Part shown: positions 31,874-55,967 of the stretch, piece by piece
Layout: the number at the start of each line of letters is the position of its first letter
How positions within the stretch are numbered: position 1 is the first letter of the stretch
Assembly (NCBI GenBank): GCA_001029775.1
Contig: CP011215.1
Location: 682,303-746,302 of the forward strand
Source: Candidatus Campbellbacteria bacterium GW2011_OD1_34_28
GTDB taxonomy: Bacteria; Patescibacteriota; Minisyncoccia; Phycocordibacterales; UBA12079
Direction: 5' to 3'
DNA length: 64,000 nt
Position numbers and translations under genes: made by a program
The notes under the pieces: generated by a model
What the model saw: the letters and a program-made list of their open reading frames with translations, nothing else
What the model was told of the DNA's origin: nothing
Database searches by the model: none

Positions 31874-32086
31874 CAGGTTTCTAAGCTTTTTACTTCGCCC
31901 TGCCTCTTTTCTGAAAGAAAAGCAACGACACGGCAGACAGGTTCGCTCGTAAAAATCTAAGAACCTTCGGCCCCAGCTCGGAAAAGTGAAAAATTAAATA
32001 AATTTTTCTTTTCCTGCGCTTTTCGAGTCCTAGTCCCTCAACAAAGACGCTATTCCAAAATACCTCAATCGGTATTTTGGATTATC

Positions 32087-32128
32087 GTTGCTGCGGGACT
32101 AGGACTCGAACCTAGATAGGCGGTACCA
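32087..32128. repeat. 39-bp direct repeat identical to the 3' half of the tRNA-Gln gene (attR-like island boundary)
   Basis: ctgcgggactaggactcgaacctagataggcggtaccag is identical to 49684..49722. Confidence 0.8.
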
Positions 32129-32241
32129 GCATTAAAATTGATTTACCCTAATCAGTGTTTGTTTTGTACATTGCTGGCGTCCTTGAGCTAGAACCGTGGT
32201 CGGTCAAGCCCCGTAAGGACATTTTTAATACTTTTATCTTA

Positions 32242-32637
32242 TCATTTCGACGGTCTTTGAGCAGTAGCTTTTTTGTGATCGGGACACCCATCTTTCTTAT
32301 GGTCTAAATATTCAGCCCATGTAATAGATCCTGCATCGGAAACAGTTTTTTCAACTAATTCCAGGTCTTCCTTAGTTAGTTCTCCCTCCTTTTGGTACGG
32401 GCCCCACTCAGACATTTTTTGTATTAAGTGTGCAACGAAATATTGGGGCTTATGATCTTTACCATCGTAGATCCCCAGCAGTTTAAGATTACACGATTCT
32501 ACCTCTGTTTCAGAATGAGTTAAGACAACCGCCAGTGGCGCTTCGGCTGGGCCACCAATAAAAACTATTGGGTGCCACGCTTCGTCAAACGATCTCTTTT
32601 TGCCCCGAAGAATATCTCCCTTTTTGAATTTTTCCAT
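32242..32637 (-). CDS. hypothetical protein, last gene of the repressor-headed operon
   Basis: ORF only. Confidence 0.3.
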   Translation of the reverse strand: MEKFKKGDILRGKKRSFDEAWHPIVFIGGPAEAPLAVVLTHSETEVESCNLKLLGIYDGKDHKPQYFVAHLIQKMSEWGPYQKEGELTKEDLELVEKTVSDAGSITWAEYLDHKKDGCPDHKKATAQRPSK

Positions 32638-32686
32638 ATTTTAATCAATAAAAAGTGACAAAAGTGACACTGGTTCGACTATAAAG

Positions 32687-33433
32687 TTACACTTGCTTGT
32701 TACCTTTGTCTATTAGTTTATCTAGAGCAATCAAGACTGGGTAATTAGGATTATCCAACGTATACCCAAACCAAAAATGGCTATGAATTTTAACCTCTCT
32801 AACAATCTCTCCAAGCTTTTCAATTAGGTCATCTTTTAAGATTAATTGGCTTGCTCCCGCTGGATCTTCTAAGTGCTTATTTTTATGGGCAGCAACTTGA
32901 TGTCTGATTTTATGGAAATGATATTTTTCAAACTTCTCCTTAATTATTTCCAAATCAGCTAATCCCTCCTCCGTTGTTTTGATTACGCGAAATTGGGCCA
33001 TAATATCCCCACGGTTATCTATTGGACCCAAGAAATCGTATTCAGAAAAATCTGGATTAGGGTAATCAATTTTAATTCTTTCAACAAATTGATCAAACAT
33101 CTCAGGATCATCTTTCGAAATCAGACCGCGTTGCATATCTATAACTTCCTCTAGGGCTGGTTTAATTCTAACCTCTTCATCTTTTCTTGAGCAAAGCAGC
33201 GTATGTAAAATACTCACTGCCTCATTAAAGGAGTTGTTTGCAGATAGTAAGAGGAATCGATAGTAATCATGTTTCTCATTTTTATTTACCACTTCTAAAT
33301 AAATCTTTTTACAGGTAAGAAAATTAATATCTGCAAGATATATAAGGGAGACAATATCGTATTTGAATTTAAAAGGGATTTTAGGCATATTTGTATAAAC
33401 CCTAAAATCTTTCCACCAAATCTCTTGATTCAA
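32687..33433 (-). CDS. hypothetical helical protein with a possible HEPN-like Rx5H motif (KIRHQVAAH)
   Basis: Overlaps the upstream effector gene by 32 nt (same operon). Confidence 0.3.
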   Translation of the reverse strand: MNQEIWWKDFRVYTNMPKIPFKFKYDIVSLIYLADINFLTCKKIYLEVVNKNEKHDYYRFLLLSANNSFNEAVSILHTLLCSRKDEEVRIKPALEEVIDMQRGLISKDDPEMFDQFVERIKIDYPNPDFSEYDFLGPIDNRGDIMAQFRVIKTTEEGLADLEIIKEKFEKYHFHKIRHQVAAHKNKHLEDPAGASQLILKDDLIEKLGEIVREVKIHSHFWFGYTLDNPNYPVLIALDKLIDKGNKQV

Positions 33434-34019
33434 AAGCGAGTGTCATTTCACCGCGAGTCTTGCGACTGGTCCAATACTCTCCCTCAAGAGACTTACTCGG
33501 CTTATTTATGATTTTTAAAATTGACGCGCCATCATGGATTGCGCTTCTATCGCGAATGGTAGCCTTAGGTCGATTCGTATAGTTATATGTCAAATAAAGA
33601 TCTTCGCTGTTTGAGGCAACATTTATATCTGCGGTAGTACTGTAGCTCGACGATTCTTTCGTCATCAGTGTGCATTTAATACTTGAAAAAGTTTGTCTGA
33701 TCACCAGAATCATAGGGATTGGATCGATACCTTTTCCTGTTTCTGGATTAATCCAGTCGCTTTTCAGTTCTCCACGCCATGTACCCTGGAGATCTGGAAT
33801 CTTAATGAGCCAGCCTTGGAGAAATTTCCAACGCCACAACCATTTTGTAAAGATGATACCTATGATTGCGTAGATTGAAATCGCTTGAGGTATCAGTTTT
33901 ACTGCCATCCATAAATCAAGAGTTGAATACGTTCTAGTAACAAGAATTACACCAGCCCATATAATTAGGAAAGTGAAAATTTGCGCATGTATTTTAATCG
34001 TGTTATTTATTTTTTCCAT
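33402..34019 (-). CDS. two-TM membrane effector-like protein (Cap15/S-2TM-beta-like) downstream of the CD-NTase
   Basis: Two N-terminal TM helices, then a soluble beta-rich domain; 5-nt gap to the CD-NTase gene. Confidence 0.4.
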   Translation of the reverse strand: MEKINNTIKIHAQIFTFLIIWAGVILVTRTYSTLDLWMAVKLIPQAISIYAIIGIIFTKWLWRWKFLQGWLIKIPDLQGTWRGELKSDWINPETGKGIDPIPMILVIRQTFSSIKCTLMTKESSSYSTTADINVASNSEDLYLTYNYTNRPKATIRDRSAIHDGASILKIINKPSKSLEGEYWTSRKTRGEMTLAFESRDLVERF

Positions 34020-34024
34020 AGTTT

Positions 34025-34915
34025 TTACTCAAATCCAAGATAGTCCCATGCCCTAGAGAAAAAGGAGTGGGCCTTCTCTCGCGTACAAGGTTGATGCGTT
34101 CCGTAAATATTTTTAATATCGTTAACCTCACACAACGTCGCATGTTTTCCGTTTGGTAATGTTTCGTTATGGCAGTGTGCAAGGACAGCACGCACGTCAG
34201 CAGAATATGTATCCCTATTGAAATGGTCATCAGGTGCACTCCAGACCATACTTTGAATCAGAAAGGACGGGATATCTTTTGCCTCGACAATATTTTCTTC
34301 CTGCATCTTATTTCGCAATCTTTTTAGAATCCGAGTTATCTTGCGATACCTTTGGCCAGTTGCCTCATGTTTGTTTTTGCAGTTTTCATAGGTCTGGTGA
34401 GGCCAATTTATTATTTTTGTGCCGTCATCAGCAAGAAAACAAACGCCTTCAGGGTCATGCCATTTGTACCCCGTATCGTAGTAATATCTATATGCTAAAG
34501 CAGGTACGACATCCGCATCTACCCTGTATGAATTTGAATGGATATCAAAAGCCTTGTTCCCACGAGTAACACTTGTCTTCCCAAAATAGTCCTCAAGTGC
34601 TTTTTGAACTAGATTTTTAAATTCAGCAAACGAGATGCTCCCGTCTGAGTTCCCGTAGTCCTCCTTTGATTTTCCTTGGGGGTATCTTGGAAAAAACGTT
34701 GAGTTCAAACATACACAGATATCAACGTCGCTATCATTCTTCACATTGGTTCTCGATTTGTATGAACCTTGAGGAATGATTGATATGTCCATGCTCGACA
34801 ATGTTACGTTCGCCTTTATGGCTTTTTTAACAGCTATCTCAGCGTTCTCCATTTTTTGCTGTTCCGTGACACCAGGAGCACCGCCCCAGGATTTGAATGT
34901 ATCTTCCCAAGCCAT
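34025..34915 (-). CDS. cGAS/DncV-like nucleotidyltransferase (CD-NTase, SMODS-type) of a CBASS-like system
   Basis: Pol-beta NTase motif QGSYKSRTNVKNDSDVDICV (GS...DxD) and third acidic motif RVDADVVPA. Confidence 0.55.
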   Translation of the reverse strand: MAWEDTFKSWGGAPGVTEQQKMENAEIAVKKAIKANVTLSSMDISIIPQGSYKSRTNVKNDSDVDICVCLNSTFFPRYPQGKSKEDYGNSDGSISFAEFKNLVQKALEDYFGKTSVTRGNKAFDIHSNSYRVDADVVPALAYRYYYDTGYKWHDPEGVCFLADDGTKIINWPHQTYENCKNKHEATGQRYRKITRILKRLRNKMQEENIVEAKDIPSFLIQSMVWSAPDDHFNRDTYSADVRAVLAHCHNETLPNGKHATLCEVNDIKNIYGTHQPCTREKAHSFFSRAWDYLGFE

Positions 34916-34918
34916 ATG

Positions 34919-35164
34919 TTAATTCTTTTTATCTCTAGGCGGAAAAGGATCTCGACCAGGCGCAACAGTATCACTGTCTCGGATCGGTCCACCATTTGGT
35001 TTGTGAATTCTAACTTCACCTCCACCAGATTTTGCTGATAAATCTTTCGCTATTTTCTCTGCTTCTCGTTGAGTGTTAGCAGTAGCAGAAGCACGATCAG
35101 CTCCCTCACGCTTTACTCGCCAATCATCAGAACCTTTTGGATTTGTAACATGGTAATTTGCCAT
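34919..35164 (-). CDS. DUF2188-family small protein
   Basis: YHVTNPKGSDDWRVKREGADRAS...EVRIHKPNGGPIRD pattern; 3-nt gap to the CD-NTase start. Confidence 0.5.
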   Translation of the reverse strand: MANYHVTNPKGSDDWRVKREGADRASATANTQREAEKIAKDLSAKSGGGEVRIHKPNGGPIRDSDTVAPGRDPFPPRDKKN

Positions 35165-35170
35165 ATGTGT

Positions 35171-35818
35171 TTAATATAGATCTCCGGGAAGTATCGCAAC
35201 CACTACTCCTTGGATCATACAGTTATCTGTTAATATAATCGGCTTATGGGTTTTATTGCTTGATTTTGGTCTAAGAACAACTACGCCGTCTGCCTTTTCA
35301 AAAATCTTCACGGTTGCCTCGTCATTAATGAGTGCAACCACTTTGTCTCCGTCCAATGCGGTATCTTGCTGACGAATCAGTAAGAGATCACCGCTGTTGA
35401 TACCTGCCTCATTCATCGAGTCGCCGACTGCACGCAGAATGAAATACTTTGAACCCTTTTTTGCCAGACCTGTAGATACTGGGATATAGGTTTGTATATT
35501 TTCTTCGGCAAGCGCTGGCGTACCGCAGGTAACCGCCCCCACAAGTGGAACATCAATCGTACTTACTGAAGCAACCGACTGTGTTCCAATAAGAATGAGC
35601 TGTCTCCCAACTTTTTTTATCAGTCCTGCATCAATCAAGCGATCAACTACAAGGCTTGCTGAACGTGGAGATTTTCCTCCCGTTACTTCGTTTATTTCAC
35701 GAAGTGAGGGGCTTTCACCATAATGGATAATCTTGTTGCGAATAAGGGCAAAAGCTTTTTTGTCTTTGTCACTAAGGTTATTTGTCATGGTATAAGTAGT
35801 ATACAAAACCCTATACAA
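35171..35818 (-). CDS. LexA/CI-like repressor (HTH + S24 peptidase Ser-Lys dyad)
   Basis: N-terminal wHTH (SLREINEVTG); C-terminal S24 domain (AVGDSMNEAGI...GDKVVALINDEATVKIF). Confidence 0.75.
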   Translation of the reverse strand: MYRVLYTTYTMTNNLSDKDKKAFALIRNKIIHYGESPSLREINEVTGGKSPRSASLVVDRLIDAGLIKKVGRQLILIGTQSVASVSTIDVPLVGAVTCGTPALAEENIQTYIPVSTGLAKKGSKYFILRAVGDSMNEAGINSGDLLLIRQQDTALDGDKVVALINDEATVKIFEKADGVVVLRPKSSNKTHKPIILTDNCMIQGVVVAILPGDLY

Positions 35819-35846
35819 AAAAGCAAGTATTTGCTACCATGGAGTT
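35819..35846. promoter_or_regulatory. divergent promoter/operator region with a repeated TATACAAAA motif
   Basis: gtatacaaaaccctatacaaaaaag between the divergent repressor and 35847 genes. Confidence 0.3.
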
Positions 35847-36260
35847 ATGGACTACAAACTCGAGCTAAAACCTTTTGAACGAAAGGACGGCATGAAGTAT
35901 AAAACCATCCAACTAACGGATATTGCGCTTCACACAGCCAAGAAGACCCCTACTCCCTCCGTCGGTAAGAAAGTGCAAAATGCATTCAAGAATGACAAGC
36001 CAGATCGCATTTATTCAAAGCTCGAAAAGACGGCGGTTTCTGATGATAAAGCGTTCACCCTTGATCTGCTAAAAATGGATTCTGATTTTCTAAAAATGGT
36101 TCGAGATGAAGAAGCAAAGGGCTACAAGATTTTAATCGCCCTGCCGAACGAGGGTGTCCCTGTCTTCCCAGGCAAGGACACGGTCGAATTTATGAAAAGT
36201 AAAAACGGCAAGCGGATTATTCGTGGTCTTGCAAAAGAAAAAGCAAGAGATAAAATATAA
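35847..36260 (+). CDS. hypothetical protein transcribed divergently from the repressor (Cro/early-gene position)
   Basis: Position only. Confidence 0.3.
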   Translation: MDYKLELKPFERKDGMKYKTIQLTDIALHTAKKTPTPSVGKKVQNAFKNDKPDRIYSKLEKTAVSDDKAFTLDLLKMDSDFLKMVRDEEAKGYKILIALPNEGVPVFPGKDTVEFMKSKNGKRIIRGLAKEKARDKI

Positions 36261-36425
36261 GTGTTAGATCCTGCGTAGTAAAAAGTAGAATAGTGTATCG
36301 CCTCCAAGCCATGCCTATTCCGCGCAAGAAATAGTTTGAGGTTTTTCGGACCTCTCCCTATTTCGTGTGTGGAGTAGGCTTTTTCTATATCCATACATTT
36401 TATTAAACATAATTAATAAAATGCT

Positions 36426-37700
36426 ATGAAAAAACTTTCATGGACAACAGGAATACGAGAGGTTAAAGACCTATTCCCTTGGAAAGAAAACCCAAGAAAA
36501 ATCTCAAAACAAGCGTTGGATAAATTAAAAGAGAAAATCACGCAAAATGGTTTTCACAGTGTGATCGTAATTGATACAGACAACACGATACTCTCGGGTA
36601 ATCAACGAAAGACGGCACTCACCGAACTTGGTGTGAGTACGGTTAATGTAATGATTCCCAGTCGCAAGCTTACAGATAAGGAGCGACGAAAAATCGGCAT
36701 CGAGAGCAACATCAACGACGGCGAATGGGACTTCGAGAAATTGAAATCTTTTGATTTGGAATTACTTCAATTCGCTGGATTCGACGGGAAAGAACTAGTG
36801 AAATTTTGGGACGAAGAAAAGGATACGAAAGACGATAAGTTCGATGTCGATAAGGAACTCAAGAAGATCAAGACTCCTCAGACCAAGCCAGGTGATCTAA
36901 TAATCATGGGCAACCACAAGCTACTCTGCGCAAGTTCAACTGATATCAACGCCGTTACAAAACTATTCGGCGATGACAGGGCTACTGCTATCTATAGCGA
37001 CCCACCATTCAATATCGGACTCTCATACGATAAGGGTGTTGGCAATAAAAGTAACTATGGTGGGTCTTTCGACGATAACCAATCGGCAGACGAGTATGTG
37101 AATTTTATTCGTAAGGTTATGCAATCGTCCCTTGCAATATCAATTAAGGATATTCATGTCGCGTTCTGGTGTGATGAGGCATGGGTGTGGGTTTTCCAGA
37201 CGTTGTACATGGAACTCGGCATCAAGAACCGAAGACTGAATATCTGGATCAAAAACAATTCATCACCGACCCCAGCCGTGGCATTTTCAAAATGTACGGA
37301 GTTCTGCGTGTATGGAACAAAAGGATTGCCGTACCTGTCCGACCTTATTAAAAATCTTAACGAGATTCAAAACAAGGATTGCACAACGGGTAACCAACTT
37401 CTCGGAGACATCTCAAATATCTGGGCAATCAAACGACTACCATCGAATCAAATGGAACACCCCACAAGCAAAAACCCAGAACTCCACCATAAATTCATAA
37501 TGCGATGCACCAAGCCTGGAGATATCATATTCGATGCCTTTTCAGGATCAGCTAGCACCATGATCTGCGCCGAGCAACTAGACCGCAAAGTGTACTCACT
37601 CGAAATTGAGCCGGTTTTTTGTGACCTGGCGATTCGCAGGTACGAAAAACTAACTGGTCGGAAAGCAACGGTAACCAAAAACTATTATGAAAAAGAATAA
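36426..37700 (+). CDS. ParB-like nuclease domain fused to an N6A/N4C DNA methyltransferase (phage-type orphan MTase)
   Basis: N-terminal ParB/Srx-like domain; motif IV SDPPFN; C-terminal motif I FDAFSGSAST. Confidence 0.7.
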   Translation: MKKLSWTTGIREVKDLFPWKENPRKISKQALDKLKEKITQNGFHSVIVIDTDNTILSGNQRKTALTELGVSTVNVMIPSRKLTDKERRKIGIESNINDGEWDFEKLKSFDLELLQFAGFDGKELVKFWDEEKDTKDDKFDVDKELKKIKTPQTKPGDLIIMGNHKLLCASSTDINAVTKLFGDDRATAIYSDPPFNIGLSYDKGVGNKSNYGGSFDDNQSADEYVNFIRKVMQSSLAISIKDIHVAFWCDEAWVWVFQTLYMELGIKNRRLNIWIKNNSSPTPAVAFSKCTEFCVYGTKGLPYLSDLIKNLNEIQNKDCTTGNQLLGDISNIWAIKRLPSNQMEHPTSKNPELHHKFIMRCTKPGDIIFDAFSGSASTMICAEQLDRKVYSLEIEPVFCDLAIRRYEKLTGRKATVTKNYYEKE

Positions 37701-38103
37701 ATTTCAGGATCAGTTTCTTGCCGAATTAATAAAAATCCCAATTATACAAGTTGCCTGCGAGAAAACAGGGCTATCTCGCAATAGTGTCTATCGGTGGAAA
37801 AAAGAAGATAAGGAATTCTCTAATAAAATGGACGAGGCATACGCCGAGGGTGTCGCTTTGGTAAGCGACATGAGCGAAAGCCAGCTACTTACTCTTATTA
37901 AAGAAAAGAACTACCCAGCTATTAGTTTCTGGCTTCGTCATAGAAATGAAAACTATAAGAACAAGCTAGAAATCACTACTAAGGAAGACGACGAGGAACT
38001 TACACCGTCACAGGCAAAAATCGTGAAGCAAGCACTAAGGCTCGCAAACATCACTAAGTCGAAATCCATTAAAAACATTAATAGATCAAAAAGTCATGAC
38101 TAA
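37687..38103 (+). CDS. HTH protein, probable terminase small subunit
   Basis: Overlaps upstream and downstream genes; HTH (TGLSRNSVYRW); sits immediately before TerL. Confidence 0.4.
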   Translation: MKKNKFQDQFLAELIKIPIIQVACEKTGLSRNSVYRWKKEDKEFSNKMDEAYAEGVALVSDMSESQLLTLIKEKNYPAISFWLRHRNENYKNKLEITTKEDDEELTPSQAKIVKQALRLANITKSKSIKNINRSKSHD

Positions 38104-39580: not shown

Positions 39581-39599
39581 ATATAGCTCGCGAGTATCT

Positions 39600-40202
39600 T
39601 CACTCTTCGTTCTCAATTCTTCTTCTGCGCTCGTCTAGTGTTTCGCCGTCATACATCCAGTAGTCTGTTCCAGCTACTCCGTAATCATAGCCAAGTATCT
39701 TTTGTGCAGAGGTGGAGAGACTGGTTATCTCACCTCCAAACTCAATAGTGTTGTTATCAACGACTTGGGCTTTAATGTTTTCGTCTCGGCTAAATACCAA
39801 TTCGGATCCGACAGGAATATCAACGATACTAAAATTAAATTTCGATCTCCGTGTACGCGCCTGATTCAATGCTTCCTGATCTTCTTTGGACTCAACAAAA
39901 TCTTTTTTCGGAGTAATGTTTTCTATCTCTGCTAATTTAAGGGCGGCCACCACTCGCTCTGGTGAAATATGGAAAAATTCTCTTCTTGGATTTATACGAC
40001 TATCATCAAAAGCGTCGTGTAGTTGCTGTTCAACGAACGTGGCACTATTTACTGTACAGGCGTAAAAACAAGTAAATGGAATAGGGACACTTGTTGAAGA
40101 ACTCAGCTCTCGAATTCGTTGTTCTAAACTCGTGGAAGTTTTACCTATCTTTACATAACCAGGCATCGCCTCGTTTATGAGGATATAAATTATTTCGTTC
40201 AT
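39600..40202 (-). CDS. GIY-YIG nuclease superfamily protein (T5orf172/MUG113-like)
   Basis: N-terminus YILINEAMPGYVKIGKT...R.R... Confidence 0.55.
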   Translation of the reverse strand: MNEIIYILINEAMPGYVKIGKTSTSLEQRIRELSSSTSVPIPFTCFYACTVNSATFVEQQLHDAFDDSRINPRREFFHISPERVVAALKLAEIENITPKKDFVESKEDQEALNQARTRRSKFNFSIVDIPVGSELVFSRDENIKAQVVDNNTIEFGGEITSLSTSAQKILGYDYGVAGTDYWMYDGETLDERRRRIENEE

Positions 40203-40330
40203 GTTGTTGGTTCGGTTTTCTAATAATTAGGTGGCCAGATACACAAAAATCCCGCCACCAGAAGGAGACCTTTCGATCATCCCTACCTAAGTTTCCCTAG
40301 GTAACCGAACCAACGACCCTGATGACGGGG
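40203..40330. repeat. structured inverted-repeat region upstream of the serine recombinase (candidate recombination site)
   Basis: ttgttggttcggtt ... aaccgaaccaacg inverted pair flanking ggtggcc...gccacc, plus a third ttggttcgg copy. Confidence 0.35.
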
Positions 40331-40554
40331 TTTTTACGTTGGTTCGGATTTGCAACCATATCCTTTGGAAAACCAAAGGGGTTAGGTCGACTGATATTCA
40401 GTTGTAAATTAATAATAACATTTTCGACTTTATTATTCTAGATTGATTGTATCGCTGATACATGATTTTGCTAAGACTCTATATACGACCATGCTACGTA
40501 TCTCTAGTTCTGCATAGTCTATGCACCACCAACTGGTCTGTCATCAATATATGT

Positions 40555-41874: not shown

Positions 41875-41880
41875 TAACCT

Positions 41881-44800
41881 TTATTCATAAAACTTACCGC
41901 CAGAAATATCAAAGAATTTCTCAAAGAAACTCGTCAGCTTATCTATAACACTTTCACGTTTTTGAGTACGTTCACCAGTTGGAGAAAAGCGAGATACTGG
42001 TGGTAAAACTTTTGTAATAGCGGTACCAGTCGTTGCGATGCTTCCATCACGGAACGCGTTTTTTATAAACGTGACAGTCTCATCATGATCAAGATTTTCA
42101 CTAGTGATAATTTGCTCAAGTTCTTCAATCTTTTTCTTATCAACAAACTTCTGCCAATCGTCATCCACCATTGAATGAACATCAAGGGAGGTTATAAACT
42201 GATTGATGAGATCCTTTTTATTGCGTAATTCAATACTAGAATCTATCGCCTTATTAATATCAAGTAATAACTCACGATTTTTGATGTGGTCTTCGTGATA
42301 TTTTTTGATAAGTCCTAGGACATAATCAATATTGATTTCTATCTGCTTGATAAGCTCCATTTCAAACACCAGATCATCATTGATGTTCTCCTTAACGTCC
42401 TCTATTGTCTTGCGAAAGTCGTTGTAGAGATCAATATATATACTGTGATAATCCTGAATATCACGCTCAGTTAAAATCTCATTACCTGCAAACTCGTCAA
42501 ATGTCGTGAGAATATTACGCACTCGCAGAATTGCACTGTATAGTTTAATAAAATCTTTTTGACTTTGCTCGCCAACAATCCGCTGTCCCACAGGAAATTT
42601 TTCCAGAAGTTCGGCTACCAAACTCGCATATCCTCGAACTTCTTTCTCGTTATCTTTATATCCGTTGTAATACTCTGCGTACGATTTCAAAAGCACAATA
42701 CCACTAGCTTCTTTATCGCCAAAGAGTGCAATTGATTCATTGGTCGCTTTCTCTAAGTTACGGAAACAAACGATATTTCCAAAAGTTTTGACGCTATTTA
42801 GGATACGATTCGTTCGTGAAAATGCTTGAAGAAGACCATGTAATCGAAGATTTTTATCTACCCATAATGTATTGAGTGTCGTAGCATCAAAACCTGTCAA
42901 AAACATATTGACCACAATCAAAACATCAACTTCACGATCTTTTACACGCTGGCTGACATCCTTATAATAATTCTGGAATTTATCAGATGAAGTATCATAG
43001 GAAGTCCCAAACATTGTATTGTAATCCTTGATGGCACTCTCCAAGAAATCTCGCGAACTCACATCTAGCCCACTTGTATCTTCTGAATTTTCATCAATCA
43101 TTCCGTCTGCGTCCTCGTCATTTACACCAAAACTAAAAATGGTTGCGACTTTGAGCCGTTTATCGCTAGGCACTTCCGCAAGTTGTTTTTTAAATTCAGC
43201 ATAGTACTTTTTAGCAACATCAATTGATGAGACTGCAAAAATGGAATTGAACCCAGCCAATCTTCGGTCCTTTATTTTATAGAAACTATTACGCTTTGTT
43301 TTTTGATCAAAATGTTCACGAATGTATCCAACAATATTCGCTAGACGTTCTGGTGAAGCAAGTACAGCTTCGCGGTCAATATCACTGACTTTTTTGTCTT
43401 CAATGTTCTCAGCTTCGCGAACAGTAGAAACGTAGTCAACCTTGAACGGTAGAACATTTTTGTCGGCAATCGCATCAACGATAGTATAAGTGTGTAATTT
43501 TTCACCAAAAGCTTGCTCTGTTGTCTTCAAGTCTGGTCTACCCCCAGAAGATGCGTTAATAGCAAAAATTGGAGTACCAGTAAAACCAAAGAGGTGGTAA
43601 TTCTTGAAAGCTTTTATAATGCCTGCGTGCATATCACCAAATTGTGAGCGATGACACTCATCAAAAATAAGCACAACATGACCATCTAAAATAGCATGTT
43701 CATTATTGCGTCCAATGAAGCGATCCAGCTTCTGAATAGTTGTGATGATTATGCGTGCGTTCGGATTTTCGAGCTGCTTCTTCAATATCGCCGTAGAAGT
43801 ATTGCTATTTGCTGAACCCTTCTCAAACTTGTCGTATTCTCGCATTGTCTGGTAGTCCAAATCCTTACGATCTACAACAAACACGACCTTATCTACATAA
43901 GGCAACTTACTGACTAACTGCGCCGTCTTGAAACTGGTCAAGGTTTTTCCTGATCCAGTCGTGTGCCAGATATATCCACCAGCCTCTACTGTTCCAAGCT
44001 TCTTGTAGTTTGTGCTAACTTCGATTCGACTTAATATCCGTTCGGTAGCTACTATCTGATATGGTCGCATTACCAACAACAGATGATCGGTAGTAAATAC
44101 ACAGTACCGAGTTAAAATATTCAAAAGTGCATGTTTCGCAAAAAATGTCTTAGCGAAATCCATTACGTCTGTAATCGGTTGATTGGTAGCATCTGCCCAC
44201 CAACTAGTGAACTCAAAACTATTGCCTGTACGCTTACCCTTTTTCGCACCGCCCTCGTTAGATTCTTTAATATGCTGAGACCTTGTGGTGTTGCTGTAAT
44301 ATTTTGTATGCGTGCCATTTGAAATGACAAACAATTGAACATATTCAAAAAGCCCACTTGATGCCCAAAAACTCTCACGCTGATAGCGGTTAATTTGATT
44401 GAATGCTTCGGCAATCGCTACACCTCGGCGCTTAAGTTCAATGTGTACTAAAGGTAATCCATTCACCAACACAGTTACATCGTAACGATTGGCGCGCTGA
44501 CCATCTTCTGTCGCATACTGGTTTATTACTTGCAGACTATTGTCATGAATGTTGTCTTTTTTTATAAGATAAATATTTTTTATGGTACCGTCGTCGCGCG
44601 TTAGATTCTTGATGTGATCTTCTTGAATAGTTGTAGTTTTTTCTTCAATACTTTGATTTGGGTTAGCAAGCTCGCCCACAAAGAAATGTTCCCATTCGGT
44701 ATCAGAAAAGGTAACCTCGTTGAGTTTCTCTAGCTGTTGTCGTAGATTCAAGACCAAATCATTTTCGGAGGTTAGCTTCAGGTATTCATACGCTTGTGTT

Positions 44801-44940
44801 TCAAGTTGCTGAATAAAAGCACGTTCCAATTCTGCTTCGCTTTGGTAATGAGTCGCACGCTTTGCATCAGGAGTGTACTGCGACACCACTGTGCTTTGTG
44901 AATTTTCGGCGACCAAATTGTATTTGTTGTTATTTTGCAT
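41881..44940 (-). CDS. hsdR: type I restriction enzyme R subunit
   Basis: 1019 aa; N-terminal nuclease; SF2 helicase motifs (TGSGKTLTSF, DECHRS); overlaps the hsdS stop. Confidence 0.9.
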   Translation of the reverse strand: MQNNNKYNLVAENSQSTVVSQYTPDAKRATHYQSEAELERAFIQQLETQAYEYLKLTSENDLVLNLRQQLEKLNEVTFSDTEWEHFFVGELANPNQSIEEKTTTIQEDHIKNLTRDDGTIKNIYLIKKDNIHDNSLQVINQYATEDGQRANRYDVTVLVNGLPLVHIELKRRGVAIAEAFNQINRYQRESFWASSGLFEYVQLFVISNGTHTKYYSNTTRSQHIKESNEGGAKKGKRTGNSFEFTSWWADATNQPITDVMDFAKTFFAKHALLNILTRYCVFTTDHLLLVMRPYQIVATERILSRIEVSTNYKKLGTVEAGGYIWHTTGSGKTLTSFKTAQLVSKLPYVDKVVFVVDRKDLDYQTMREYDKFEKGSANSNTSTAILKKQLENPNARIIITTIQKLDRFIGRNNEHAILDGHVVLIFDECHRSQFGDMHAGIIKAFKNYHLFGFTGTPIFAINASSGGRPDLKTTEQAFGEKLHTYTIVDAIADKNVLPFKVDYVSTVREAENIEDKKVSDIDREAVLASPERLANIVGYIREHFDQKTKRNSFYKIKDRRLAGFNSIFAVSSIDVAKKYYAEFKKQLAEVPSDKRLKVATIFSFGVNDEDADGMIDENSEDTSGLDVSSRDFLESAIKDYNTMFGTSYDTSSDKFQNYYKDVSQRVKDREVDVLIVVNMFLTGFDATTLNTLWVDKNLRLHGLLQAFSRTNRILNSVKTFGNIVCFRNLEKATNESIALFGDKEASGIVLLKSYAEYYNGYKDNEKEVRGYASLVAELLEKFPVGQRIVGEQSQKDFIKLYSAILRVRNILTTFDEFAGNEILTERDIQDYHSIYIDLYNDFRKTIEDVKENINDDLVFEMELIKQIEINIDYVLGLIKKYHEDHIKNRELLLDINKAIDSSIELRNKKDLINQFITSLDVHSMVDDDWQKFVDKKKIEELEQIITSENLDHDETVTFIKNAFRDGSIATTGTAITKVLPPVSRFSPTGERTQKRESVIDKLTSFFEKFFDISGGKFYE

Positions 44941-46180
44941 ATTCGGGAAATGTTAAAAGCTTGCTTCGGTAGTATTCGTATTGAGATCTGCGAGCTTTGA
45001 GTTCAGCTGGCAGACCGATAGAAATATCGTTCACGAGAGCATCGAATTTATCTAAAACTGTTACGATTTGTTCTTGTTCGGCGATAGGTGGAACTGGGAT
45101 TTTAATTTTTTTTAATTCTGCCATCGGAATACTCATAACAGGAGATCCAACAATTTTATTTTCAATTTGCTTTTTTGCAATTATAGAATTAAGGAAGAAT
45201 AACAAAAATTTTGAATCTACGACTTTTTGATTCGGTTTGATTACATATACACCCTCTTTTATGTTCCAATTCTTCGGTTTCTCTTTCACTAAAGCAGTTC
45301 TACCGATTGTTCCTGTTCCAGAAAACAAAACGTCGCCAACTTCCAGATTGGATCTATTATTTATCAATCTTAACGCTTCGTCATTTACCCTGTCAGTCTT
45401 TTCAAAAAATGTTACATTTAAGCCGTTTATTTCACGAACCGTAACATAGTAATTATTCGCGTCCTGAGTATTCAAAACAAAGTTTTTACGTGGATTCAAA
45501 CCTGTTTTAAGTGATAAAATAATATCACCCAATGTTTCCTCTCTAACTTTTTCATCAAATATAAATAGTCCAGAGCGATAATACTCATATTGCTTCTTCC
45601 TAGCTTCTAGCTCAGCTTCTAGCTCAGCTTCTAGCTCAGTAAAACTATTAAGAATAGTGACAATTTCTTCTTGGATTGCAAGGGGTGGGAGAGGGATTTT
45701 GAATTTCTTGACTTCATTATCTGAAATTGCTGGATAGCTGGCACCTTTCTGTGTTGCCTCTACGTAATCACAAAATTCAGATGAGCCAATCAGATGAAAA
45801 ACAAAATCAGTCAAAATTACACTGGTGTCTGGACGCAACACACAAAAACCAGTACTACAAATTTGTCCATCATATTGGGCTCCGATTACACAAAATCGTT
45901 TGAGTGTTGGCCTCGTTGTACCAAAAATAACATCACCCTTCCTAACTATTTTTTGTGCACGACTAGGTGCTGTGTCTGAATCTACCGTCTGTACTTCTGA
46001 AATAGCGTGTGTCACCCTATCTACAGATGATAAATCGATATACTGAAATGTTTTCCCGACATTATTTTGCCAATTTATATTCGAGGTCGGTTCACAGACC
46101 TTACCTAACTCCTTAAACTCAACCCCTTTAGGACAGAGTTGGGCAATCAACTTTTCAATTTTGCTTTGGTGTTTGGACAT
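44930..46180 (-). CDS. hsdS: type I restriction-modification specificity subunit (two TRDs)
   Basis: Duplicated TRD architecture with a central conserved region containing the ELEAELEAELEA repeat. Confidence 0.85.
   Translation of the reverse strand: MSKHQSKIEKLIAQLCPKGVEFKELGKVCEPTSNINWQNNVGKTFQYIDLSSVDRVTHAISEVQTVDSDTAPSRAQKIVRKGDVIFGTTRPTLKRFCVIGAQYDGQICSTGFCVLRPDTSVILTDFVFHLIGSSEFCDYVEATQKGASYPAISDNEVKKFKIPLPPLAIQEEIVTILNSFTELEAELEAELEARKKQYEYYRSGLFIFDEKVREETLGDIILSLKTGLNPRKNFVLNTQDANNYYVTVREINGLNVTFFEKTDRVNDEALRLINNRSNLEVGDVLFSGTGTIGRTALVKEKPKNWNIKEGVYVIKPNQKVVDSKFLLFFLNSIIAKKQIENKIVGSPVMSIPMAELKKIKIPVPPIAEQEQIVTVLDKFDALVNDISIGLPAELKARRSQYEYYRSKLLTFPEYAK
45603..45638. repeat. 12-bp tandem repeat x3 (agcttctagctc) in the hsdS central conserved region
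   Basis: Perfect 3 copies, in frame, encoding ELEA repeats. Confidence 0.8.
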
Positions 46181-46181
46181 A

Positions 46182-47729
46182 TTAAATTTGGCTAATTTTT
46201 ACCAGCAAAACATTGTAATGATACAAACTTAACTGCTTTTTTATATTTCTATAATTTATAATGCTGAAAAAGGGCAATTTTAAATCATCTTTACTTGTGC
46301 CTATAGCATAAACAATTGTGTACTCGGATGGATTTGGGTCACTCTCCAAGACTACGCTTTTATGAGAATTAATAAGTTTTGAATTGACTTCTTTTCTGAA
46401 TGATTTGTCTGTAAGCAACAAATCAGCGGATACCAGTCCCTGACTAAATAAATGGCTTAGTACGGCACTTGCCCCGTATTTCTTCACATGCACTAGGTGT
46501 TTATCAGACCTAACAAGATCAGCAAATTCAATTTTGCCTTTTCCTATCAAGTTAGTTTGACTTACACCACCATCAAGACACTGATAAGCAGTGTCATTCG
46601 TTGCAACTTTATTATTGTAAATATTTTCGTGATCATTCTTATCCCAGTCTGGCAAAGCAAAGGTCGCATCTACACGATACTCACTCTCAATCTTATTTTT
46701 GTAAGTCGCGTCTACTTTGTAATATTTACCAGCTACTAATAAATATTTCTCACTGTTGGAGTCGATTTCAGCATATAAACATTTATATATTGACCATTCT
46801 TTTATGAACTGATCATTGGTATCTACTTGTTGCACTTTTTTACTTTTGAGCAAATCTACTGTGATATTCGTCTTCTCGTCATCAGTCAACGAATCCTTAA
46901 AATCATCAAAAATGATATCCTGATATTCTGTAGCATTATTTCTGGCGCTATATTTAAAACATTTTGTATTTTCCCATTCAATAACTTCGGGGATTGCGAG
47001 CCAACAAATTACATCGGTCTTACTATCATCATTTATTTTTGAAACAATCTTATTATCTAAATCAGTTACCACCTTTTTATCGTTAACGGCAGAAAAATTA
47101 TCAAACCAATCAAATCTCTCTTTGTATTTATTGGAAATGTATGCCTTGTATAGCTCAAGAAGTACGTCATTAACCTCATCAACATTCCTTTTGATAGATA
47201 TACTAATTGCATCCTTTCCTATAACATTCTTTCCATACAATTCCTGATCCTCTGGTTCACCAACAACAGCCCTCATAATGTCCTGCTCAATATCAAAACC
47301 AAAATCTGCAACCGTTCCAATTCTACCGAGCTGTTCCGAAACATCTTTTAGTCCATTTTTAAAATTCTTTTTTTCAATTTTCTTTACTTCGCTTTTAATG
47401 ACACTAAGAGCTGTTTTGATTCCAAATTGCTCAACTATTACACCATCTTTGAACATTTGCCACCCATGACCGAAAGATAAACCGAAGTAAATGTCTTTAC
47501 TGTTATATTTTGTTTTTGTTATATATAGCCCCGAAGCAGTAGAATTCTTTAGATCTTCGATATTCTTATTGAAAAAATTATCTGTCCATGCTGGCTTTTT
47601 TGAAAATGATTTTTTGTAGTATAAGACCCCATTGTCAAAAATCTCATTCGTACTTACGTCCTTAACGACATCACTATGGTCTGTGATATTATCCTTAATC
47701 AAATAAATTGAGAGTTTTTGATTTTTCAT
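46182..47729 (-). CDS. uncharacterized 515-529-aa protein embedded between hsdM and hsdS (candidate R-M-associated defense gene)
   Basis: Translationally coupled both ways (4-nt gap after the hsdM stop, 1-nt gap to the hsdS start). No P-loop and no obvious catalytic motif. Confidence 0.4.
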   Translation of the reverse strand: MKNQKLSIYLIKDNITDHSDVVKDVSTNEIFDNGVLYYKKSFSKKPAWTDNFFNKNIEDLKNSTASGLYITKTKYNSKDIYFGLSFGHGWQMFKDGVIVEQFGIKTALSVIKSEVKKIEKKNFKNGLKDVSEQLGRIGTVADFGFDIEQDIMRAVVGEPEDQELYGKNVIGKDAISISIKRNVDEVNDVLLELYKAYISNKYKERFDWFDNFSAVNDKKVVTDLDNKIVSKINDDSKTDVICWLAIPEVIEWENTKCFKYSARNNATEYQDIIFDDFKDSLTDDEKTNITVDLLKSKKVQQVDTNDQFIKEWSIYKCLYAEIDSNSEKYLLVAGKYYKVDATYKNKIESEYRVDATFALPDWDKNDHENIYNNKVATNDTAYQCLDGGVSQTNLIGKGKIEFADLVRSDKHLVHVKKYGASAVLSHLFSQGLVSADLLLTDKSFRKEVNSKLINSHKSVVLESDPNPSEYTIVYAIGTSKDDLKLPFFSIINYRNIKKQLSLYHYNVLLVKISQI

Positions 47730-47733
47730 AACA

Positions 47734-49320
47734 TTATTTATTGCTCTCAATATCAGCCACAATCTCATCAATTGCCATGCGAAGCTCTTGTTGTCTTTTT
47801 ACAATTCGACCAATTTCGACATTAAGCTCGGTGATATTTACAACCTCGCGAGTATTTTCAGCCACGACATAGCTCAATACGGCGATATTGTAGTCATTCT
47901 CAGCGACAACTTTATTATCTACAAGCTTGGCAAAATACTCTGCATCTTTACGTTCAATAAAAGCGTTGAGAATTTTTTTGCGACTTGCTTCACTCAACTT
48001 ATTTTTATTACCACCACGAACAAATTCAGCGGAGGCATCAATGAAGAGAGTTTTGTTATCTTTCTTACTCTTCTTGAGTACGATGATACAGGTGGCGATA
48101 GTTGTACCGAAGAATAGATCGGGTGGTAATTGAATAACTGCATCAACGTAATTGTTATCTATGAGGTACTTGCGTATCTTCTGTTCTGCGCCGCCACGGT
48201 ATAGAACCCCTGGAAATTCGACAATAGCCGCCGTACCACTCGTAGAGAGCCACGCGAGCATGTGCATAGTAAACGCTAGATCCGCCTTACTCTTTGGTGC
48301 TAATACTCCAGCTGGTGAAAAACGTGGATCATTAATAAGAAGAGGGTTTGCGTCACCATCCCACTTAATCGAATATGGTGGATTCGAAACAATGGCATCG
48401 AAAGGTTCGTCGTCCCAATGTTTTGGATCAGTAAGTGTGTTGCCGTGAGCAATATCAAAATTATTGTAATTAACATCGTGCAAGAACATGTTGATACGGC
48501 AAAGGTTGTAAGTAGTAAGGTTAATTTCTTGTCCATAAAAACCTTGTCGAACATTTTCCTTACCTAGCACTTTTGCAAATTTGAGAAGAAGAGAACCAGA
48601 ACCACAAGCTGGGTCGTAAACCTTGTTCACTTCCTTCTTCCCTACGGTAGTGATTTCTGCCAGAAGTTCACTGACTTCTTGTGGGGTGTAAAATTCCCCA
48701 CCAGACTTACCGGCATTTGAAGCATACATGGTCATCAAAAACTCGTAAGCGTCACCGAAAGCATCTATGGTATTGTCGGAGTAATTGCCAAGACGTAGGT
48801 CACCAATAGCTTCAATAATTTTAGTCAGTTTTTGATTGCGTTGCTCTACTGTATTACCTAATTTATTAGAATTAACATCAAGATCAGCAAATAAACCCTT
48901 GAGGTCATCTTCACTATTTGCGCCTTTTGCAGAACTTTCAATATCACGGAAAGTTTTAACCAGCGTTTCGTTGAGGTTTGAATCATTACGCGCTTTCTTG
49001 CAAACATTTACAAAAAGTTCACTTGGCAAAATATAAAATCCTTTTTCTTTTACCGTATCAGCTCTACCAAATTCAGCTTCTTTATTGGAAAGCGAAGCAT
49101 AGTCAAAATCTTTTTTACCAGCACGACGTTCGTCAGCGTTAATATAGTTGGTCAAATTTTCGCTAATGAAACGATAAAAGAGCATGCCTAGTACATATTG
49201 TTTAAAATCCCAACCATCAACACTTCCTCGTAAGTCATTGGCGATCTGCCAAATAGCACGATGCAATTCTGAGCGTTCTTGCTCTTTGGTAGTATTTAAA
49301 TTTAATTCTTTGTTGCTCAT
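47734..49320 (-). CDS. hsdM: type I restriction-modification methyltransferase subunit
   Basis: HsdM N-terminal domain; motif I DPACGSGSLLL; motif IV NPPY (IVSNPPYS). Confidence 0.9.
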   Translation of the reverse strand: MSNKELNLNTTKEQERSELHRAIWQIANDLRGSVDGWDFKQYVLGMLFYRFISENLTNYINADERRAGKKDFDYASLSNKEAEFGRADTVKEKGFYILPSELFVNVCKKARNDSNLNETLVKTFRDIESSAKGANSEDDLKGLFADLDVNSNKLGNTVEQRNQKLTKIIEAIGDLRLGNYSDNTIDAFGDAYEFLMTMYASNAGKSGGEFYTPQEVSELLAEITTVGKKEVNKVYDPACGSGSLLLKFAKVLGKENVRQGFYGQEINLTTYNLCRINMFLHDVNYNNFDIAHGNTLTDPKHWDDEPFDAIVSNPPYSIKWDGDANPLLINDPRFSPAGVLAPKSKADLAFTMHMLAWLSTSGTAAIVEFPGVLYRGGAEQKIRKYLIDNNYVDAVIQLPPDLFFGTTIATCIIVLKKSKKDNKTLFIDASAEFVRGGNKNKLSEASRKKILNAFIERKDAEYFAKLVDNKVVAENDYNIAVLSYVVAENTREVVNITELNVEIGRIVKRQQELRMAIDEIVADIESNK

Positions 49321-49323
49321 AAA

Positions 49324-49530
49324 TTATTTTAATAATTCGTTAGTCGAAACACCTAACGCCTGGGCCAGGTTAGTAATAGTTGCGAGAGTTGGATTTGTCT
49401 TCGCATTCTCTAGATTACTAACAAAAGAACGATCGACGCCTAATTTCTTAGCAATCTCGACTTGAGTGATATTTTTCTTGATTCTGATTCGCTTGAGATT
49501 TTGTCCAAGCTTTTTAACATCGTCAGTCAT
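49324..49530 (-). CDS. XRE-family HTH regulator (controller-like) upstream of the R-M operon
   Basis: LKRIRIKKNITQVEIAKKLGVDRSFVSNLENAK HTH; 3-nt gap to hsdM. Confidence 0.6.
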   Translation of the reverse strand: MTDDVKKLGQNLKRIRIKKNITQVEIAKKLGVDRSFVSNLENAKTNPTLATITNLAQALGVSTNELLK

Positions 49531-49680
49531 AAAAGTATTATAGCACATTCTGTTGTAGTATAAAACAACAAAAAACACTCCTTGTTCAAGAGTATTTTTT
49601 GTTCTGAATACTGCTCTCAGCAGGTATGCAATTTAGGTATAGATCTTCCTGATTAGCTCTATCTTTGAGCTAGCTCAAGT

Positions 49681-49754
49681 TGGCTGCGGGACTAGGACTC
49701 GAACCTAGATAGGCGGTACCAGAAACCGCAGTCCTACCATTAGACGATCCCGCA
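49681..49754 (-). tRNA. tRNA-Gln (anticodon CUG), CCA encoded
   Basis: Cloverleaf by hand: U1-A72, G73 discriminator (GlnRS identity), anticodon loop UUCUGGU, T-loop UUCGAGU. Its 3' half is repeated at 32090. Confidence 0.85.
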
Positions 49755-55911: not shown

Positions 55912-55967
55912 AAGGGGTGAGCAAAAACAATGAAAACCAAAGATATCGCTTTGGTTTTGGTTTTTTG

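Follow-up and report, generated by a model that had tools for sequence, protein, structure and literature searches.

A 17.5-kb island in a bacterium of the Candidate Phyla Radiation (CPR) is, with high probability, an integrative element mobilised by a large serine recombinase (LSR), with attachment (att) sites at the 3′ end of a tRNA-Gln gene and at the far end of the island (32173–49686). The window, that is, the whole stretch of DNA that was analysed, comprises 64,000 nt of contig CP011215.1 (positions 682,303–746,302, forward strand), and all coordinates given below are window-based. Exact-protein look-ups showed that many assemblies of the host exist, among them GCA_000990865.1, GCA_003489565.1 and an ENA scaffold. 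A first-pass annotation had proposed a horizontally acquired, tRNA-targeted integrative island at this place, either probably immobilised or mobilised by its serine recombinase. The island itself was confirmed by an empty site in a relative, and of the two options our results support the second. Immobilisation is disfavoured because the att arms are intact, the genes for the LSR, TerL, TerS, the ParB-methylase and the repressor show ratios of nonsynonymous to synonymous substitution (dN/dS) of 0.01–0.07, and the core recurs with varied cargo at differing tRNAs. Nor is the architecture typical of tRNA-targeted elements, as had been stated: the integrase is an LSR, and attL and attR share only the 4-nt core CAGC. 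Linking an island to a tRNA gene is an ordinary idea; the mechanism and the family behind this island are not.

Results

The probable crossover lies at the 3′ end of tRNA-Gln

The intact tRNA-Gln gene that forms one end of the island was recovered by ARAGORN and Rfam at the position first assigned to it. The sequence beyond its end was compared with related genome and metagenome loci, which are labelled by L-numbers (L004, L057, L087 and so on). Read in tRNA sense, all Gln-type attL sites run tRNA…CAGC-CAA-CTTGAGCTAGCTCAAAGATAG…, despite differing host tRNA-Gln sequences, and the P′ motif also follows the tRNA in L087, L089, L090, L092, L098, L110 and L094. Co-varying versions of the motif, with a …GCTAGC… palindrome, follow Ser, Trp and Glu tRNAs; in the Gln, Asn, Ser, Trp and Glu subfamilies the motif starts 1–7 nt past the tRNA end. 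Moreover, changes in the P′ motif are matched by changes in the P-arm repeat.

At the opposite end, the element closes with a conserved block of ~80 nt, Y, which is present in ~25 loci and whose last part imitates, imperfectly, the T-arm and acceptor end of the tRNA (…CCACGGTTCTAGCTCAAGGACGC-CAGC). In the window attR, CAGC is followed by AATGTACAAAACAAAC, which matches over 14 nt the chromosomal trailer of the empty site in L004, where the tRNA is followed by CAGC-AATGCACAAAACAAAC. In L087 (1739–1819) and L089 (121–200), two elements stand in tandem with an intact P-O-P′ junction between them (Y-CAGC-(C)A(G/A)-(C/T)TTGAGCTAGC…), as expected if a second element integrates into a resident attL. 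The attP rebuilt from the window, CTAGCTCAAG-GACGCCAGCCAA-CTTGAGCTAG, aligns with these natural junctions and contains perfect 10-bp inverted repeats and a 12-bp spacer centred on the CA of CAGC.

The rebuilt attP has the architecture of a serine-integrase site, with inverted half-sites and few bases in common with attB. We infer that attL is B + P′ and attR is P + B′, and that exchange is limited to the shared CAGC (A72, G73 and the next base), which would leave 17,510 bp between the cores. As the P′ arm supplies the end of the tRNA, the window tRNA has an encoded CCA, whereas the tRNA-Gln of L004 ends …CAGCAATG without one. A crossover in the T-loop, as in Dehalococcoides, was considered and rejected: the P-arm sequence past GGTTC differs from the host tRNA, and the trailer stands directly after CAGC. 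In addition, P′ arms were found after partial tRNA-Gln 3′ copies ~140 nt (L022, 5812–6060) and ~185 nt (L075, 18257–18560) past the full tRNA, indicating that displaced tRNA-end fragments can serve as secondary attB sites.

A CcrB/SprA-like large serine recombinase is the probable integrase

The LSR contains the PF00239 Resolvase (8e-21), PF07508 Recombinase (7e-18) and PF13408 Zn_ribbon_recom (8e-4) domains, matches PHROG 95 integrase (3e-62), and shows the N-terminal motif YARKS in its translation. SPbeta SprA was the best PDB match, alongside A118 integrase. The best NCBIfam match was CcrB (3.4e-36), a score far under the family cut-off that indicates resemblance and not equivalence. A metagenome scan yielded 80 loci with homologues 62–98% identical to the window LSR, and a search of IMG/VR with the window TerL yielded five contigs classed as viral, four of which carry an LSR homologue (down to 57% identity), giving 84 loci from metagenomes and viromes (57–98%).

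The LSR is the only recombinase kept across this family. The first-pass annotation had found no tyrosine integrase, and this stands: no tyrosine recombinase was found in the scanned window open reading frames (ORFs) of at least 70 aa (Pfam, PHROGs, NCBIfam) or in the 84 related loci. A hidden one was also sought among the sizeable ORFs, where Pfam, PHROGs, NCBIfam and PADLOC gave none, and Pfam showed no second, small serine recombinase in the island.

An empty site shows that the island is an insertion

A scan of species-representative genomes for FtsX identified L004, a Paceibacterota metagenome-assembled genome whose FtsX is 97% identical to that of the window. There, 60 nt after tRNA-Gln, comes a homologue of window 30722–31117, then the 241-aa gene and mltG. 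BLASTN showed L004 to be collinear with window 58700→49683 and then 31180→27400. Therefore, since both sides are collinear without the island, the island is an insertion; relative to L004 the inserted DNA spans 31181–49682 (18.5 kb), ~0.9 kb more than the repeat-bounded unit. The comparison with relatives that the earlier annotation had called for thus yielded the empty tRNA-Gln site. Furthermore, an independent Minisyncoccia genome (L057) has a 64% identical LSR and a LOOT RNA in the same chromosomal place. This place is downstream of both FtsX and tRNA-Gln, and the cargo is a type II restriction-modification (R-M) system. Polymorphism of presence and absence was also sought within the species, and every contig with an identical FtsX or an identical 241-aa protein bears the island.

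The base composition is in keeping with the earlier statement that the DNA between the repeats is richer in GC than the flanks. The GC fraction is 0.40–0.42 over 32–45 kb and 0.41 at 48–49 kb, compared with 0.27–0.34 on the left flank and 0.33–0.35 on the right, with a dip to 0.34–0.36 at 45–48 kb that spans hsdS and the DUF6119 gene. We count the change at the left boundary in favour of an inserted island.

The 40-bp repeat lies among older relics outside the element

The first-pass annotation had placed the island boundary at a 39-bp repeat of the tRNA 3′ half (32090–32128), with a degenerate copy at 31855–31873. A repeat finder run on the window confirmed the repeat but showed it to be 40 bp long and exact (32090–32129 = 49683–49722), running in tRNA sense from the first anticodon base to the discriminator; such a 40-mer cannot plausibly have arisen by chance within 64 kb. 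The degenerate copy also exists, although at 31849–31869 (21 nt, 19 of them identical to the tRNA 3′ end), and an inverted tRNA-end copy at 32022–32047 had been overlooked. As a boundary, however, the repeat fails, for it sits 41 nt outside attR among older relics.

A repeat from the anticodon to the tRNA end is the classical footprint of anticodon-loop integration. One reading, in line with the immobilised option of the first-pass annotation, is a classical tyrosine-integrase island: the whole 17.6-kb block entered at the anticodon loop with its own 40-bp tRNA 3′ half, lost its integrase and is now immobile. The exact repeat with this usual footprint, just 41 nt from the island end, agrees with such an origin. 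Beyond the half-tRNA, however, come CAGCAA, a hairpin X′ and the S element described below. X′ shares 92% identity with hairpin X, which lies downstream of the native 131-aa gene (30722–31117), and in this lineage tRNA genes are ordinarily followed by a short spacer and then S. It therefore seems that the 40-bp copy is the 3′ half of a former tRNA-Gln locus, chromosome displaced by another event, and its cut at the anticodon looks like the footprint of anticodon-loop integration by another, almost wholly lost element. The lack of a tyrosine recombinase in the window and in the 84 related loci likewise speaks against this origin, as does an island end in which the conserved P arm is joined via CAGC to the empty-site trailer. 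Related elements are not bounded by tRNA-fragment repeats, save for 19-nt S-element copies beyond attR in L110 and L128, and the core genes are under purifying selection. We consider a tyrosine-integrase origin very unlikely, and the LSR-mobilised element is retained in what follows.

The 27-nt relic between the trailer copy and the 40-bp repeat (32130–32156) and 33047–33079 are alike in ~22 of 23 bases, with one indel, and the relic was probably left behind by an earlier, related element. The 164-aa relic ends in a degenerate P arm that is joined to CAGCAA and the full chromosomal trailer (31161–31180). Its DUF3828-like gene has only two homologues; the distant one in L169 (400–1140) lies between a P′-type palindrome and a Y-type arm, in a cargo-only mini-element presumably mobilised in trans. 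This context supports accretion, without dating the 40-bp repeat. Moreover, a 20-nt direct repeat, CAGCAATGTRCAARACAAAC (32157–32176 and 31161–31180, 18 of 20 identical), flanks a 976-bp block in which the 164-aa gene, S, X′ and the 40-bp half-tRNA lie. We read the left border as debris of successive insertions at one tRNA, outside the current element, and the pieces at 31161–32176 allow no unique reconstruction of their order.

Two further ideas about this border were rejected. The 131-aa genes at 30722–31117 and 32242–32637 are not paralogues, as BLASTP showed no similarity and they have in common only the non-coding P arm downstream of them. Nor could the left-end repeats be assigned to a known RNA family, their Rfam matches being chance ones to miRNA hairpins.

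The element belongs to a family of mobile defence islands

The layout of the related loci was read by tblastn with the window proteins, and synteny was counted on the 45 loci with enough sequence. The recurrent layout starts with a LexA-like repressor on the minus strand, followed on the plus strand by p137, the ParB-methylase, TerS and often TerL; then come sometimes a small cargo gene, the LOOT RNA (minus), the LSR (plus), variable genes, an XRE gene and the tRNA gene. The tRNA gene is downstream of the LSR and on the other strand, oriented so that its 3′ end points towards the element. The ParB-methylase and TerS were found upstream of the LSR in 34 of the 45 loci and TerL in 25. The repressor is 62–100% identical in relatives, and XRE homologues (48–90% identical) adjoin the tRNA in L087, L089, L090, L092, L102, L110, L112 and L115.

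The targets include tRNA-Gln (TTG or CTG), tRNA-Ser (several anticodons), tRNA-Trp, tRNA-Glu and tRNA-Asn or tRNA-Asp. In a neighbour-joining tree, the LSRs grouped largely by target tRNA; that LSR clades track the target is counted as support for specificity. An integrase gene usually stands beside its att site, and in L136, L144, L165 and L168 the tRNA begins only 125–180 nt past the LSR stop codon.

The elements measure 2.9–17.5 kb from attL to Y, and the cargo scanned in them is mostly defence-related: cyclic-oligonucleotide-based antiphage signalling (CBASS), Gabija, Shedu, MmeI, type I, II and III R-M, and a retron-type reverse transcriptase (RT). The slot near attR holds CBASS in the window, SMODS and SAVED in L110, Gabija in L098 (3359–6933) and Shedu in L139 (2537–3925). 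Between TerL and the LSR lie T5orf172 in the window, a retron-type RT with type III R-M in L165 (11375–17144), and a protein of 1180 aa in L057. The third slot, from the LSR to attL, holds type I R-M in the window, type II R-M in L057, and MmeI with a helicase in L110. The L110 cargo (4428–6548, 11382–17152) also includes T5orf172 beside MmeI and the helicase. Several cargo ORFs without a family match, such as that of the L057 1180-aa protein, are candidate new defence genes.

Purifying selection on the core genes is strong: dN/dS was 0.03–0.05 for the p137-methylase-TerS-TerL operon, and for TerL against L084 dN was 0.034 and dS 0.80. No capsid, portal, tail or lysis family was found among the ORFs scanned in the window and its relatives. 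These results bear on the possibility of a decaying cryptic prophage whose repressor, methylase and terminase were left after the loss of structural genes while defence genes gathered around them. PHROG matches to TerL, TerS, a phage-type methylase and the integrase are what such a prophage would leave, and IMG/VR classed five relatives as viral; these five contigs, however, are islands of the same type and not phages. The same reduced gene order recurs in dozens of loci (at least 34) from many environments and at differing tRNAs, in whole elements no larger than the sizes given above, and the TerL and TerS ratios are unlike decay. Because the virion and lysis families are absent and the core is conserved, we set the decaying prophage aside as very unlikely indeed. 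The terminase and repressor genes are a conserved module of a class of elements without virion genes.

The least probable reading, a non-mobile defence island accreted by the tRNA whose serine recombinase is an invertase, a resolvase or a companion of defence islands and no integrase, draws on the frequency of recombinases in defence islands and on the mid-block position of the window LSR, but it is countered by the full Resolvase, Recombinase and Zn-ribbon architecture of the LSR, its place beside the tRNA in minimal family members, the attP-like junctions between tandem copies, the correlation of LSR clades with the tRNA target, and ends that are conserved while the cargo varies.

Within the library searched, full-text searches for serine integrases or recombinases in Patescibacteria, in Parcubacteria or in CPR found no description of the family. 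The island is a member of a large, widespread and apparently undescribed family of mobile defence islands in CPR bacteria (Paceibacterota).

LOOT RNA accompanies the LSR, and S accompanies tRNA genes

LOOT (RF03000) is an orphan small RNA motif in Rfam. The window copy matched the covariance model over its full length (1–121) at 78.4 bits, against a gathering score of 46.4, and further copies were found in L057 (20037–20157, 89.7 bits), L110 (9798–9922, 78.5 bits) and ~40 other loci. Of the 75 LSR loci with upstream sequence, 39 contain LOOT, in 35 cases within 300 nt of the LSR start and divergent from it; in 1.15 Mb of FtsX-centred loci it occurs twice, beside the LSR in L057 and at the locus edge in L080. 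A promoter-like site lies ~50 nt upstream of the window copy, and LOOT is always followed, ~50–70 nt downstream on the same strand, by a variable ORF; these ORFs include Zn-ribbon/transmembrane proteins, T5orf172 and an SNase-like nuclease. LOOT thus looks like a leader or small RNA tied to the middle cargo slot. A role as a guide or bridge RNA for the LSR was rejected, since cognate LOOT/att pairs share only 5–7 nt, the same as non-cognate pairs; the absence of LOOT from about half of the LSR loci further undercuts it.

The degenerate tRNA copy of the first-pass annotation proved to be the 3′ end of S, a conserved structured motif of ~100–190 nt whose 5′ end pairs with the tRNA-end copy at its 3′ end. 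Eighteen copies fold as a three-helix junction of 23 pairs; compensatory double changes occur in 16 of these, and 96.6% of cells are paired, compared with 77% in shuffles. The covariation score was 0.585 versus 0.203 in shuffled alignments (none of 500 shuffles reached 0.585), and slid controls gave 0.05–0.09. A conserved G-U pair fixes the strand as tRNA-sense. The S model gave 39 matches in the 1.15 Mb of Paceibacterota loci (e.g. L055 7618–7748, L078 3436–3566, L008 11743–11898 and ~36 more). Most follow a tRNA gene (Thr, Met, Asp, Ser, Ile, Tyr, Gln) on its own strand at a distance of no more than ~80 nt, and the majority terminate in 17–20 nt copied from the 3′ end of that tRNA, beginning in the T-loop. 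S also occurs in genomes without an LSR element (L008, L005), and Rfam gave no match for it in the window or in four other loci. S may be a miniature element that inserts in T-loops; alternatively, it may be an RNA whose 3′ end is tRNA-like.

Features of the window

The coordinates of the element and its left border are collected in Table 1. The repressor, terminase, methylase, serine recombinase, CD-NTase and type I R-M genes named in the first-pass annotation were all present by profile searches. HsdR, HsdM and HsdS are encoded within one operon, as in a type I R-M system, together with an extra DUF6119/TIGR04141 gene; this "sporadically distributed" gene may be an accessory defence component. 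The CBASS is of type I, with a CD-NTase and a single effector and without Cap2/Cap3 or HORMA/TRIP13. The core genes contained no primase, helicase or Rep domain, with the p137, 248-aa and 131-aa ORFs unassigned.

Elsewhere in the window, the 16S rRNA gene (57065–58640) is followed by tRNA-Ile(GAT) and then murC (55967–58640 in all, minus strand), with no 23S rRNA or tRNA-Ala gene there; the rRNA operon is unlinked in the window.

Table 1. Features of the island and of its left border (window coordinates).
Feature	Position	Strand	Evidence or remark
tRNA-Gln(CTG), intact	49681–49754	minus	ARAGORN; Rfam tRNA 55.3 bits; B arm of attL; encoded CCA (…CAGCCAA)
attL core CAGC, inferred crossover	49683–49686	minus	Comparison of attL, attR, attB (L004) and tandem junctions
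P′ arm of attL, CAACTTGAGCTAGCTCAAAGATAGAGC…	49640–49682	minus	Kept beside differing host tRNA-Gln genes
XRE-family helix-turn-helix (HTH) regulator	49324–49578	minus	Pfam HTH_3 1.6e-17; conserved first gene inside attL
Cargo slot R, type I R-M operon	41881–49320	minus	Pfam, NCBIfam
hsdM	47734–49320	minus	
DUF6119/TIGR04141 gene	46182–47771	minus	Between hsdM and hsdS; overlaps hsdM end
hsdS	44930–46180	minus	
hsdR	41881–44940	minus	
LSR, inferred integrase	40555–41874	plus	439 aa from GenBank-called start; longest ORF from 40462
LOOT RNA (RF03000)	40265–40388	minus	78.4 bits; divergent from LSR; leader of next gene
Cargo slot M, T5orf172/GIY-YIG-like protein	39600–40202	minus	Pfam T5orf172 1.4e-16; PADLOC 3.3e-73, candidate PDC-S57
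Conserved operon p137-methylase-TerS-TerL	35847–39580	plus	
p137	35847–36260	plus	
ParB_N-N6/N4 DNA methylase	36426–37700	plus	
TerS-like	37687–38103	plus	
TerL	38096–39580	plus	PHROG 38, 1.5e-76
LexA-like HTH + S24 peptidase repressor	35171–35818	minus	Peptidase_S24 7e-28, LexA_DNA_bind; divergent from p137
Cargo slot L	32242–35164	minus	
DUF2188	34919–35164	minus	
CD-NTase	34025–34915	minus	PADLOC cyclase 9.3e-119
Cap15 2TM effector	33402–34019	minus	PADLOC 1.2e-80; Pfam Cap15_CD_rec 6.6e-24
248-aa protein	32687–33433	minus	No match
131-aa protein	32242–32637	minus	No match
attR, P arm Y + core CAGC: …CCTTACGGGGCTTGACCGACCACGGTTCTAGCTCAAGGACGC + CAGC	32173–32250	minus	Core 32173–32176; Y 32177–32250
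Stretch between attR core and 40-bp repeat, 43 nt	32130–32172	minus	AA 32172–32171 + 41 nt proper
14-nt trailer copy	32157–32170	minus	
27-nt relic	32130–32156	minus	Resembles inverted fragment of 248-aa gene
40-bp displaced tRNA-Gln 3′ half	32090–32129	minus	Outside LSR element
S element	31841–32035	minus	Own covariance model 67.2 bits, E = 2.9e-20; 3′ end 31849–31869, 5′ end inverted copy 32022–32047
Relic of cargo-only mini-element	31181–31848	minus	Absent from L004; degenerate P arm
DUF3828-like 164-aa gene	31267–31761	minus	
Oldest relic	30587–31180	minus	Common to L004
131-aa gene of oldest relic	30722–31117	minus	
Y-type P arm, then CAGCAA, hairpin X	30619–30699; X 30587–30619	minus	
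Rebuilt attP junction stretch of window element			…GGTTCTAGCTCAAGGACGCCAGCCAACTTGAGCTAGCTCAAAG…
attB junction stretch			tRNA-Gln…CCCGCAGCAATGTACAAAACAAAC

Materials and methods

tRNA genes were called with ARAGORN and Rfam, and ORF profiles were searched in Pfam, PHROGs, NCBIfam and PADLOC. The dN/dS values are Nei-Gojobori estimates for window genes against relatives. The FtsX scan covered species-representative genomes. The Y arm was searched with nhmmer, and LOOT in the LSR loci with iterated nhmmer.

Discussion

Our results favour an element whose CcrB/SprA-like LSR acts on a circular form carrying an attP with inverted repeats CTAGCTCAAG and CTTGAGCTAG and the spacer GACGCCAGCCAA. The LSR would recombine this site, by strand exchange at the core CAGC, with the terminal bases of tRNA-Gln (A72-G73 plus trailer), probably with CA as the central dinucleotide. 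Integration would keep the tRNA intact, the P′ arm donating an encoded CCA, and the P arm, a mimic of the tRNA end, would become joined to the old tRNA trailer. The conserved core comprises, in order, the XRE gene, the LSR, the LOOT leader RNA, the TerL-TerS-ParB/methylase-p137 operon and the LexA-like S24 repressor, with three cargo slots.

We read the island as active and satellite-like rather than as a dead prophage. The putative induction switch is the LexA-like S24 repressor, whose cleavage may derepress the p137-methylase-terminase operon; the LSR with a directionality factor would then excise the island, and the island's own terminase would package its DNA into helper-phage capsids. We put this life cycle forward tentatively, as a possibility that may well prove wrong. 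A broader proposal is a little more doubtful still: that the islands are a CPR-specific class of phage satellites with an LSR for tRNA 3′ ends and self-packaging by TerS/TerL, that they are the main shuttle of anti-phage systems between such small genomes, packaged in the capsids of a helper phage, that LOOT controls the cargo gene of the middle slot, and that S is a new structured RNA or a miniature T-loop-inserting element giving a secondary attB.

Several observations weigh against the LSR-mobilised element or against its satellite-like life cycle. LSR chemistry does not account for the exact 40-bp repeat starting at the anticodon, which needs a separate event, and the crossover position was obtained by sequence comparison alone. 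The window LSR lies 7.8 kb from attL, with R-M cargo between; insertion of this cargo explains the distance but does not prove it. All ~24 assemblies with identical flanking proteins (FtsX or the 241-aa protein) hold the island. As every assembly of the strain has it and an excision product is unseen, current activity in this strain is unproven. Neither a replication gene nor a directionality factor was identified in the island, and TerL is missing from ~44% of family members. The satellite idea draws on gene content and no helper phage is known: a search through TerL reached at most 28% identity to cultured phages, all such matches being Mu-like, and the IMG/VR matches were islands.

Serine integrases are prized as genome-engineering tools and had been supposed to avoid tRNA genes. 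This family offers natural attP/attB pairs by the dozen, all located where tRNA genes end, with subfamilies retargeted to Gln, Ser, Trp, Glu and Asn, so that the specificity code is directly testable. To our knowledge, almost no genetic tools exist for CPR bacteria (Patescibacteria), and their mobile elements are poorly known; an element that is compact, integrates itself and has defined sites suggests itself as a candidate vector. The family also shows a traffic of defence systems (CBASS, R-M, Gabija, Shedu, retron-type RT) among ultra-small genomes. The orphan LOOT RNA gains a concrete genetic context, and S is an unannotated, strongly covarying element linked to tRNA genes. For island callers, the window is a worked example in which the obvious long tRNA repeat differs from the att site.

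Compared with known systems, the island resembles Islander/TIGER-type islands: one end is marked by an intact tRNA, a displaced fragment of a tRNA lies close by, the composition is foreign and a relative has an empty site. The displaced fragment, however, is not the att core of this element, and both the integrase family and the sublocation of the crossover differ. Phage satellites offer further likenesses. Phage-inducible chromosomal islands (PICIs, including the Staphylococcus aureus pathogenicity islands, SaPIs), capsid-forming PICIs, P4-like elements and PICI-like tycheposons measure 10–18 kb and integrate at tRNA genes, as does the 17.5-kb window element; satellites also combine a repressor with a divergent operon and carry one or more packaging genes without a virion module, P4-like satellites are hotspots of defence systems, and tycheposon islands show tandem copies and partial-tRNA debris (10.1101/2020.12.28.424599). 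In contrast to satellites, the window core genes contain no primase or replication module, and many family members encode TerS and TerL without a capsid gene. Tyrosine integrases were found in 910 of 937 tycheposons (10.1101/2020.12.28.424599); classical PICIs and most tycheposons use such enzymes, whereas this family uses an LSR.

The recombinase has the same domain architecture as those of phiC31, Bxb1, A118, SPbeta (SprA) and SCCmec (CcrAB). As in other serine-integrase elements, the attP consists of inverted half-sites round a short central crossover, attP and attB have nearly no identity, and the integrase gene stands at the element end in minimal members. Known serine integrases target protein-coding genes or intergenic sites. 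Their use of tRNA or tmRNA genes was stated to be unreported, and only 14 of 297 such cases were found (Mageeney et al. 2020, PMC7192596). The window element differs from known serine-integrase elements in that its P arm mimics the tRNA 3′ end and its P′ arm restores the end of the tRNA.

Among documented systems, the ssrA islands of Dehalococcoides (DsiB elements) come closest; in these, CcrB-like LSR islands lie at the tmRNA gene (McMurdie et al. 2011, PMC3146451). There the target is tmRNA and not a tRNA gene, the crossover lies in the T-loop with a 20-bp repeat rather than at the 3′ end with a 4-nt core, and a second, small serine recombinase (DsiA) is present that the window family lacks; the window family has TerS/TerL, a LexA-like repressor, LOOT RNA and CPR hosts, in which the Dehalococcoides islands differ. 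Accretion of islands at one target has been described both for the Dehalococcoides ssrA islands (PMC3146451) and for tycheposons (10.1101/2020.12.28.424599). In both the DsiB elements and the window family, a CcrB-like LSR stands by attL at the 3′ end of a tRNA-like gene, a core with a ParB-domain protein and a DNA-modification gene is combined with variable cargo and lacks conjugation or virion genes, and downstream of the target there is tandem accretion both of islands and of relics that have no integrase.

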